Virus record (IMG/VR): IMGVR_UViG_2548876943_000010
Coordinates: 1 to 9,467 of that record
Length of the DNA stretch: 9,467 nucleotides
Reading direction: 5' to 3' (one strand)
Source: a virus
Taxonomy: Duplodnaviria > Heunggongvirae > Uroviricota > Caudoviricetes
This document shows positions 6,001-9,000 of this stretch, piece after piece. The position numbers were made by a program. Within the stretch, counting starts at the first letter, position 1; every line of letters begins with the position of its first letter.

Positions 6001-9000
6001 TGCACTGCTGAAACAGTATGGTATACGCCTGACGGCTAATCAGGCATATCACCAGATGGTGAAACTGGGGATCGTCGAGCAGCGCGAACGATACAGTCGT
6101 ACCGCGATTAACAACATCAAAAAATTCTGGTCGCTGACAGCGAAAGGCTGTCATGTTCGGCAAGAACATCACCAGTCCCGCAAATCCGCGCGAGACGCAG
6201 CCGCATTTCTTCGAATCCCGATTCCCTGAGCTGTTAAAGCTGCTCGATACCGTTCATTGAGGTGACCGTGAGAGCACTACTGACCCCTGAAATTGCCCCG
6301 CGTATGGGGATCGTATTGTTCAGGCCAGGTTCAGAGCTGATGCCCCTGTTTATGCAGGGGCGTGTCCTGCTGGAGCCTGAGCCGGAGCGTTATTCATCTT
6401 TCGCCAGTGGTGCCGTTCCGGCGGCATCACAACCGCTGGCGGATGATCCTGCCGTTCGGGCCGTGTTCCGCAATGAGGCAGTGATCCGTCGTGCTGGTGG
6501 CGTGGAATGTCTTGAAAGCTGGTTACTTCGTGAAAAAGGCTGCCAGTGGCCTCATTCCGACTGGCACAGCGAGAACATGACCACAATGCGACACGCTCCG
6601 GGTGCAATCCGTCTGTGCTGGCACTGCGATAACCAGCTGCGCGATCAGTTCACGGAACGGCTGGAATCAATGGCAACGGATAACTGTGCCCGCTGGGTGT
6701 TGTCTGTTGTGCGTCGGGATCTCGGTTTTGATGACAGTCACGTTGTGACAATGCCGGAACTGTGCTGGTGGCTGATTCGTAATGATCTGGCGGATGCCTT
6801 ACCGGAAAGTGCGGCCCGTAAGGCACTGAGATTACCGAAGCCTGTTGTGCCGTCTGTTACCCGGGAAAGTGACCTTGTGCCTTCGGTTCCTGCCACCAGC
6901 ATCATCCAGGATAAGGCGAAAAAGGTGCTGGCGCTGAAAGTGGATCCGGAGTCGCCGGAGTCTTTTATGTTACGCCCAAAACGTCGCCGCTGGGTTAATG
7001 AAAAGTACACGCGCTGGGTTAAGACACAGCCGTGTGCATGTTGTGGAAAGCCCGCTGATGATCCCCACCACCTGATAGGTCACGGTCAGGGTGGAATGGG
7101 AACAAAAGCGCATGACCTTTTTGTGTTGCCTTTGTGCAGAAAGCATCACGACGAGCTGCATGCGGATACCGTGGCATTTGAAGAGAAGTATGGCTCCCAG
7201 CTGGAGCTGATATTTCGTTTTATCGATCGTGCGCTGGCAATAGGCGTACTGGCGTAAGTGGAGAACGAGCATGAACCTTGAAGCCTTACCAAAATATTAC
7301 TCCCCAAAATCTCCAAAACTGAGTGATGACGCACCGGCGACAGGCTCTGGTGGTTTAACAATTACGGATGTAATTGCTGCGCAGGGGATGGTGCAGTCGA
7401 AAGCACCACTGGGTTTTGCCTTATTCCTGGCAAAAGTTGGTGTTCAGGATCCTCAGTTTGCGATTGAAGGTCTGCTCAATTACGCGATGGCACTGGATAA
7501 CCCGACATTGAATAAATTGAGTGAAGAAACCCGGTTACAGATCATCCCTTACCTTGTGAATTTTGCCTTTGCTGATTATTCCAGGTCTGCGGCAAGTAAG
7601 GCTCGCTGTGAGCATTGTGCTGGTACTGGATTTCATAATGTATTGCGCGAGGTGGTGAAACACTCCAGAAGCGGGGAATCTGTTATCAAGGAAGAGTGGG
7701 TGAAGGAACTATGTCAGCATTGTCATGGTAAGGGAGAAGTCAGCACAGCGTGCAGAGGGTGTAAGGGTAAAGGTATTGTCCTGGATGAAAAAAGAACCCG
7801 GCTTCATGGTACGCCTGTTTATAAGATTTGTGGGCGTTGCAATGGTAACCGGTTTAGCCGTTTACCAACCACACTGGCGCGGCATCATGTCCAGAAGCTG
7901 GTACCTGCCCTGACGGATTATCAGTGGTACAAAGGATATGCAGATATCATTGATAAACTGGTTACAAAGTGCTGGCAGGAAGAAGCATATGCAGAGACAC
8001 AATTGAGAAAAGTGACAAGATAAATGATTTTCGCCGAAGATGGCGACATGATGCTTGCATTTTTCAAAAAATATGGATAAGATTTTCCCAACGATGGGCT
8101 TTGTATGTCTACCGTTGATAAGATTTAAGAACCCGCCGCTGAGCGGGTTTTTTTGTGCCTGATGTCTCATGAAACTATGAAATGGATTGGTACGTTAAAC
8201 ATTTTTTCTTATTATCTTTTAGATTTTGGAGAGATGGGTAACGTCTGTATTCCAGAAACTCGATGAATATTTAATAAATTAGTTCAATGATGCTTCTAGG
8301 TTATGAGTGTAATGAAAAAGGTATTAATAGCAGCGATAGGTTTTTGTTTAGTTGGTTGTGCAGGTATGAAATTACCTGAGTATTCGCAAGTTAAAGCAAG
8401 TCCGTATTATACAGATTGCCGTGCGTTTGCCATGGATGTTTATAAAAATGATGGATACAGCAAAATTGCGAAAACCACTATCCTTAGCATGGATGATGTG
8501 AAGGCTAGATATATTGTTACAGGGTGTGTAGTTGCTATGGGGAAAAACACTGTAGAGGAAATTAAAGCTGATCTCTCTGCTAAAGGGAGTTCTTTTGGGC
8601 TTATCAGTGGTGCTTGTTCTAGTGCTGCATGTCGGGTTGATGTAGAGCAGCAAATGAACGCTTATATACTTGGTAGTTATTATGCTGCAAATAAAAAATT
8701 CCCGGATAAAATGAAAGCAGAGTTTTAAGCAAACCTTGTTTTCGATTATATGCCGAAGATAAATGTTAGTAACGGCATAATAAGTAAATATATAGCTGTG
8801 ATAGCAACCCGCCACTGAGCGGGTTTTTTATTTCGGAATTAATTACGGACCGTTATTATTCTGCTCCCGGCCCTTTAGCTCAGTGGTGAGAGCGAGCGAC
8901 GCATAATCGCCAGGTCGCTGGTTCGAATCCAGTACAACGCGCCACACTTATTTTCCCTGGCTCGCTTTTGCGGGCCTTTTTTTTAAATGTCTCACAATTC

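Follow-up and report, generated by a model that had tools for sequence, protein, structure and literature searches.

An ileZ::argO hybrid at the tRNA array site of lambdoid prophages in Escherichia coli, probably a fused pseudo-tRNA

The 9,467-nt stretch of lambdoid prophage DNA analysed here (IMG/VR record IMGVR_UViG_2548876943_000010, positions 1 to 9,467; hereafter the window) carries a tRNA-shaped element of 76 nt on the + strand at positions 8869-8944, with the sequence GGCCCTTTAGCTCAGTGGTGAGAGCGAGCGACGCATAATCGCCAGGTCGCTGGTTCGAATCCAGTACAACGCGCCA. This element is very probably a non-functional, fused pseudo-tRNA that arose by recombination between ileZ and argO within an ancestral ileZ-argN-argO array of phage tRNA genes. 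Its 5′ part is that of ileZ and its 3′ end that of argO, and alignment of the window with intact arrays leaves one clean gap of 174 bp. An earlier note, made from the sequence alone, had given exactly these coordinates and had described canonical arms together with a non-pairing acceptor stem, possibly belonging to a tRNA whose 3′ end had been replaced by recombination.

Structure of the element

The lack of acceptor pairing was borne out, as GGCCCTT (8869-8875) and ACAACGC (8934-8940) form two of seven pairs, G1-C72 and T7-A66, with the other arms present and the element ending in G followed by CCA (8941-8944). The D arm is intact (8878-8893, GCTC/GAGC), the anticodon arm spans 8895-8911 with the anticodon CAT at 8902-8904, and the T arm (8917-8933, GCTGG/CCAGT) keeps its five pairs. 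All three arms are thus present as described, but to call them canonical overlooked two features. Position 33 in the anticodon loop (8901) is a G, as compared with the near-universal U of tRNAs, and the first T-stem pair is a G·U wobble in which G49 comes from ileZ and U65 from argO. An A27·C43 mismatch in the anticodon stem is also present in intact ileZ.

ARAGORN detected 0 tRNA genes anywhere in the window, in agreement with the manual fold of the earlier note, and made no call for the hybrid in six other hybrid-bearing loci scanned. With Rfam RF00005 the element gave a local match only, covering model positions 7-64 with 37.3 bits, which is above the gathering threshold; three intact homologues scored 67, 58 and 70.1 bits over model positions 1-71. 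The isolated hybrid RNA folded no better than shuffles (z = −0.97), and intact ileZ, with its 7-bp acceptor stem, reached z = −4.0. The transcript between the flanking terminators that includes the hybrid did not fold better than shuffles either (z = −0.52). When the cloverleaf was forced, the hybrid gave −8.1 kcal/mol versus −29.7 kcal/mol for intact ileZ. A scan of the 7-mers of 8760-8884 for an alternative acceptor partner of ACAACGC yielded at best 5 of 7 pairs, which was the commonest value in shuffles.

The RefSeq annotation at this place, made by the Prokaryotic Genome Annotation Pipeline (PGAP), is a tRNA-Met gene, and the same label was found in every hybrid-bearing genome listed or inspected. 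This label and the Rfam score above the gathering threshold are what would speak for a functional tRNA-Met or tRNA-Ile with an unconventional acceptor. The annotated gene is however a 71-nt version (8874-8944) that lacks the space for a 7-bp acceptor stem because it is 5′-truncated. Compared with a functional bacterial tRNA, the element has the D arm, anticodon stem and T arm but not the 7-bp acceptor stem, U33 or a full-length call by a tRNA finder, and no other strand was found that could replace the missing acceptor partner. Without an acceptor helix a tRNA cannot be cleaved by RNase P, matured at its 3′ end or aminoacylated, nor can tRNA-Ile2 be modified by TilS, and U33 is required for the U-turn of the anticodon. 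TilS uses C4-G69 and C5-G68 on tRNA-Ile2, the anticodon CAU of which reads AUA after lysidine modification. In the element positions 4-69 and 5-68 are C·A and C·A, and these pairs cannot form. A functional tRNA at this site is extremely improbable.

As the acceptor helix is absent, the product would be neither matured, modified nor charged, and RNase P maturation, TilS modification and aminoacylation all appear impossible for it. The other possibility raised in the earlier note, a tRNA-like structure with a different role such as a processing signal, found no support, since without an acceptor helix RNase P and the 3′-end enzymes have nothing to recognise, to which G33 is added.

Parentage and breakpoint

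Intact ileZ (CAU)-argN (UCG)-argO (UCU) arrays occur at the same site and with the same flanks in related prophages and in phage Nil3, and arrays with flanks matching those of the window were present in strain 2013C-4830 (L002) and in Nil3 (L003). The alignment with the phage ileZ, argN and argO genes that had been recommended for locating a breakpoint was run, and it confirmed in outline that a tRNA 3′ end had been replaced by recombination. The element equals ileZ in 55 of its first 56 nt and argO in all of its last 27, so that its resemblance to tRNA is not a matter of chance. The missing 174 bp consist of the 3′ end of ileZ, the entire argN gene and two-thirds of argO counted from its 5′ end, leaving ileZ nt 1-49 and the last 20 nt of argO. 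The ileZ-derived part (8869-8917, +) comprises the 5′ acceptor strand, D arm, anticodon arm (CAU), variable loop and G49, and equals phage ileZ (Nil3 allele) except in position 33. The argO-derived part (8925-8944, +) comprises the remaining T loop, the 3′ strand of the T stem, ACAACGC, the discriminator G and CCA, and is followed by the normal argO downstream flank. No acceptor helix can form because the 5′ strand comes from ileZ and the 3′ strand from argO.

The element is accordingly neither of its parents in full. Identity to phage ileZ stops at 8924 or 8932, and in place of the ileZ 3′ strand AAGGGCC with discriminator A the element has ACAACGC with G. Of phage argO (tRNA-Arg, UCU) only the last 20-27 nt are found, without the anticodon UCU and the argO body. 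As a fused tRNA pseudogene it is consistent in every respect compared, with its parents adjacent in relatives that have the same flanks, a single gap and a junction placed in a shared stretch.

This stretch, common to the T arms of ileZ and argO, reads GGTC[G/A]CTGGTTC[A/G]AATCCAG. The last ileZ-specific base of the element is G8917, a position where A was found in all 58 argO alleles sampled, and the first argO-specific base is G8925, where ileZ has A in 120 of 120 sampled copies. Being bounded by these two bases, the crossover is placed in CTGGTTC at 8918-8924 (+), corresponding to the 5′ strand of the T stem and the start of the T loop. Rare alleles occur of ileZ with G57 (L128) and of argO with G at the equivalent of position 49 (L129), and because of these the widest crossover interval is the whole shared 20-mer at 8913-8932.

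The 3′ halves of tRNA genes are common integration sites, and it is the 3′ part that was replaced here. The earlier note had considered tRNA 3′ ends as integration targets, and the data were weighed for the scar of an element that integrated site-specifically into a tRNA gene or was excised from one, its DNA taking the place of the tRNA 3′ end. The sequence now found there is however precisely that of the 3′ end of argO, which is third in the phage's array, and continues into argO's own downstream flank, and the DNA that was lost corresponds precisely to the array interior. Neither 8925-8944 nor 8869-8888 is repeated in the window, and the site is located between Q and the lysis genes, inside the prophage and not at its end. 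An attachment-site scar was rejected on the absence of repeats and on this position, and its probability is close to nil.

Another possible source was an ectopic crossover between two phages, in which ileZ from an ileZ-Lys-Thr-Gly array on the backbone of the window recombined with argO of another phage. The same backbone is found in ST95-32 (L131), which carries such an array followed by the lysis genes, and the rare G57 allele of ileZ in an array of this kind (L128) would make the shared stretch longer. The match of ST95-32 to the window ends at 8828, however, and its ileZ has A57. From there on the window flank (8829-8868) is that of the ileZ-argN-argO haplotype (L002, L006), except for base 8833, and not the ileZ flank of ST95-32. 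The backbone switch is at the shared hairpin 8806-8828, upstream of the tRNA module, and the hybrid is also found behind other backbones with the triple-array flank. An inter-phage origin on this backbone was rejected because both the ileZ flank and the ileZ allele of ST95-32 differ from those of the window, and we give it a very slight probability. Given the triple-array flank from 8829 and the A57 of ST95-32 ileZ, the fusion is placed within the triple array. Judged by the flanks, the tRNA module appears to have joined the window backbone later, at the shared terminator hairpin.

Distribution and probable fate of the fusion

The distribution of the fusion was investigated with a 48-mer that spans G33 and the junction and finds no seed in either parental gene. 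The fusion was present in 162 of 5,426 complete E. coli genomes, mostly strains that produce Shiga toxin (STEC), in 217 places that were all chromosomal and numbered at most two per genome. All 162 full-length genome matches to the 48-mer fell in the identity band of at least 99%. The 48-mer had no match among 50,697 deposited phage records, and the exact junction pattern, with one variable base allowed, had none in the representative genomes of 185,579 species (GTDB). A viral sample of 120 contigs carrying the 5′ half of ileZ contained two hybrids. All 120 copies that end like ileZ had T in position 33, and every hybrid examined had G, including the window and eight other hybrid copies read base by base. 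The occurrence of G33 in every hybrid and in no intact copy, together with the identity of at least 99% of all genome copies to the 48-mer, argues for the fusion having arisen once.

The hybrid was found behind at least four different upstream modules, the late-region leader downstream being the same in all. These modules are a PF03589-type Q with an open reading frame (ORF) of 141 aa (window, L001 and L004), a DUF1133 protein directly upstream (L006 and L007), a DUF1133 protein with an ORF6N fragment (L005), and a 273-aa antiterminator with a hypothetical protein and a DNA methyltransferase (L130, O157:H7 EC4115). The EC4115 hybrid is located at NC_011353.1 1753686-1753756. Flank haplotypes vary around the unchanged 76-mer, with upstream differences reaching to 4 nt before the tRNA (L130, L086) and downstream differences starting 8 nt after it (L086). 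We take these differing flanks to reflect modules being exchanged between the numerous lambdoid prophages that reside together in STEC. Sequence matching the array region occurs in 4-12 places in the hybrid-bearing genomes listed, and an intact array is present beside the hybrid in strain 2013C-4830, so the loss of one array should cost little.

The course of events that we favour would start in an ancestral lambdoid prophage with ileZ (tRNA-Ile2, CAU), argN (tRNA-Arg, UCG) and argO (tRNA-Arg, UCU). Recombination between the nearly identical T arms of ileZ and argO, by deletion or by unequal crossover, would have removed 174 bp and left a product with three arms and with acceptor strands from two different tRNAs. 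The U33G change would have been acquired as a second disabling change, and the single fusion would then have spread among co-resident STEC prophages within the late-region leader module. Transcription may still occur, either from the promoter-like motif of the array or by Q-modified read-through, and would stop at the downstream terminator. Quality control acts on defective tRNA precursors and should remove the resulting transcript of about 115 nt, which would have no acceptor helix. The element is thus most likely non-functional, although it can probably still be transcribed.

Some points weigh against this reading. Non-function is deduced from the sequence and from established tRNA biology. 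Either an intramolecular deletion or an unequal crossover between two arrays may have generated the fusion, and the G33 change may have preceded or followed it. The identical hybrid within differing flanks could furthermore be read as constraint. The intact tRNAs of these mosaic arrays are however likewise conserved within diverged flanks, and since they behave alike and recent recombination predicts the same, the identity need not mean constraint.

A rival reading makes the fusion an expressed and stable tRNA-like small RNA (sRNA) that is retained because of a function it has gained, which might be to act as a decoy for nucleases or for enzymes that bind tRNA, or to aid processing or stability in the late leader. 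Its three intact arms, the conserved promoter-like motif before it, the terminator after it, and a sequence that does not vary among 162 genomes or across its settings, which number at least three haplotypes of the flanks and four gene contexts, are all compatible with this. Recent spread explains the invariance equally well, however, and neither the isolated RNA nor the inter-terminator transcript departs from shuffles in its fold. In addition the −35-like hexamer is weakened in the lineage of the window, the fusion is absent from all the deposited phage records and from the species representatives scanned, and an argN::argO fusion with a broken anticodon stem, described below, persists likewise, which indicates that dead fusions are tolerated here. 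We regard a tRNA-like sRNA as unlikely. Less probable still is the particular case of a stable, uncharged RNA, made from the array motif and kept by STEC prophages as a sink for nucleases or modification enzymes or as a processing mark of the late leader, in which G33 would be adaptive.

The locus, recurrent decay and known hybrid tRNA genes

A promoter-like motif of the tRNA array is located at 8831-8859 (+) and consists of TTTCGG, 17 nt and TATTAT, ending 9 nt before the 5′ end of the tRNA. Its position is fixed in the arrays, with TATTAT present in 108 of the 120 intact arrays and TTGnnn likewise in 108, across diverged flank haplotypes, and TTGnnn-17 nt-TATTAT may act as a promoter. The lineage of the window has TTTCGG for TTGCGG in the −35-like hexamer due to a G-to-T change at 8833. 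None of the 120 intact arrays had this change, which was seen only in the window, L001 and L004 and fits relaxed selection or further decay.

The terminator scan and flank homology identified a terminator-like hairpin with a T run at 8806-8832 (+), which also forms the mosaic junction between backbone and tRNA module, in that other loci, hybrid and triple, become homologous to the window from 8806 onward and the backbone homology of ST95-32 ends at 8828. Downstream of the element the scan identified the normal argO terminator at 8959-8984 (+), a terminator-like hairpin GGCTCGC/GCGGGCC followed by T8 that is identical in intact arrays. Terminator-like hairpins are dense in 8806-9324, with four on the + strand (8806, 8959, 9181 and 9309) and a convergent one on the − strand (9240-9219), and eight were observed in 7900-9467 as compared with 1.4 expected from shuffles. 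Such a density is in keeping with a late leader antiterminated by Q and containing small, self-contained RNA units.

A full-length match to the Rfam sRNA STnc100 (RF02076) covers 9021-9211 (+) with 138 bits versus a gathering score of 47, and ends in the terminator-like hairpin at 9181-9200. The STnc100-like element follows intact arrays and hybrids alike (138 bits in L002). TTGACT at 9007-9012 was dropped as a candidate STnc100 promoter, as the Rfam model starts at 9021, within the would-be spacer. A 2026 preprint (10.64898/2026.05.13.724894) links STnc100 with PasD sRNAs and interprets tRNA hits in its vicinity as left over from integration, whereas the tRNA hits at this STnc100-adjoining locus are cargo genes. 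Hits of this kind near prophage sRNA genes such as STnc100 can therefore be cargo arrays and their wreckage, and not necessarily remnants of integration sites.

The remainder of the window is a lambdoid prophage segment encoding a cI-like repressor, Cro/CII-like regulators, an O-like replication protein, a PerC-family protein, a Dam methylase, KilA-N and DUF968 proteins and the antiterminator Q (7271-8023). No integrase turned up in Pfam and PHROG scans of its larger ORFs. Over its full length the window had no match of at least 99% identity in any complete genome. The ORF following Q, at 8303-8728 (+; 141 aa), has no Pfam match, belongs to phrog_4748 (unknown function) and is found in the same place in ST95-32, JNE132847 and E2863. 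A PerC-family activator domain (PF06069, E = 1e-9) was found at 3586-4080 (+) in a 164-aa prophage ORF adjoining the Dam methylase gene. Prophage PerC homologues in attaching-and-effacing E. coli can activate the enterocyte effacement locus (LEE).

A second and independent fusion was found in the same array, in which argN nt 1-36 are joined to argO nt 37-77 within GCCTTC in the anticodon loop. It was present in L024, L049 and L093, directly after ileZ, and in 22 complete E. coli genomes. Three of seven acceptor pairs form, the anticodon stem is broken and ARAGORN made no call. PGAP annotates nothing here, because the anticodon stem is also broken. The argN::argO fusion resembles the ileZ::argO fusion in the kind of event, a short shared stretch resulting in a non-pairing acceptor, but differs in its parents and breakpoint, in the retention of an intact ileZ and in the loss of the anticodon stem. 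As it arose independently, such fusions recur in this array.

Other alterations of the arrays were also observed. In L022 and L073 argO is cut off after the anticodon, the sequence …GCCTTCTAAGCA continuing across the break as GCTGTGG…. An expanded, degenerate anticodon region of argN is found in many Stx-type (Shiga toxin) arrays (L010, L017 and many others), and in L101 everything after this region is lost. The ileZ allele of 2013C-4830 (L002, 1565-1640) has a C3·U70 mismatch in the acceptor, with the 3′ strand AAGGTCC, and C47, and is still called as tRNA-Ile; it may represent another array starting to decay. The cargo array of ST95-32 (L131, 11411-11720), ileZ-Lys(UUU)-Thr(UGU)-Gly(UCC), is placed directly upstream of the holin gene on the backbone of the window, and copies of this kind of array in swine enterotoxigenic E. 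coli (L128) have the ileZ allele with G57.

The locus agrees with the ileZ-argN-argO array of Stx-converting and other lambdoid phages in its position (Q/late genes), flanks, promoter-like motif and terminator, and differs from it in lacking the interior 174 bp, in having no complete tRNA left and in G33, which is found in no intact copy. The three genes are named in the GenBank annotations of phages Nil3 (AM051322) and Lahn2 (AM072972), and two tRNA-Arg genes and one tRNA-Met gene have been described adjoining stx2a (PMC7946995). No description of this ileZ::argO fusion was found in literature searches on ileZ, argN and argO and on hybrid tRNA genes.

Similar tRNA genes are known to give rise to chimeric genes through unequal crossing-over or conversion. 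Russell et al. in 1970 reportedly obtained hybrid tRNA genes from the tandem tyrT genes of E. coli, and Munz et al. in 1982 and Amstutz et al. in 1985 are said to have described hybrid genes from dispersed serine tRNA genes of S. pombe. These hybrids are likewise said to result from recombination in a shared stretch, giving a chimeric gene with the intervening DNA lost. Their parents were reportedly isoacceptors or near-identical and their products functional, whereas the parents here accept different amino acids, and the product would be dead because the acceptor stems of its parents are unrelated. The pseudo-tRNAs ptwF and pawZ at prophage ends in E. coli K-12 are reportedly also non-functional, partly tRNA-like fragments, but are said to be partial duplications made by site-specific integration at attachment sites, whereas the element described here is internal and derives from two cargo tRNA genes.

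The fusion is ordinary prophage decay and its biological importance is small. The RefSeq label tRNA-Met on a pseudogene inflates tRNA counts and may mislead analyses of codon usage and tRNA cargo in STEC prophages. The junction together with G33 provides a single-origin marker that can be used to trace one late-region module through prophages of O157, O121, O111, O145, O103 and O45. For the lambdoid prophages themselves, the fusion is a clear and datable case of cargo tRNA arrays eroding by short-homology recombination between neighbouring tRNA genes.

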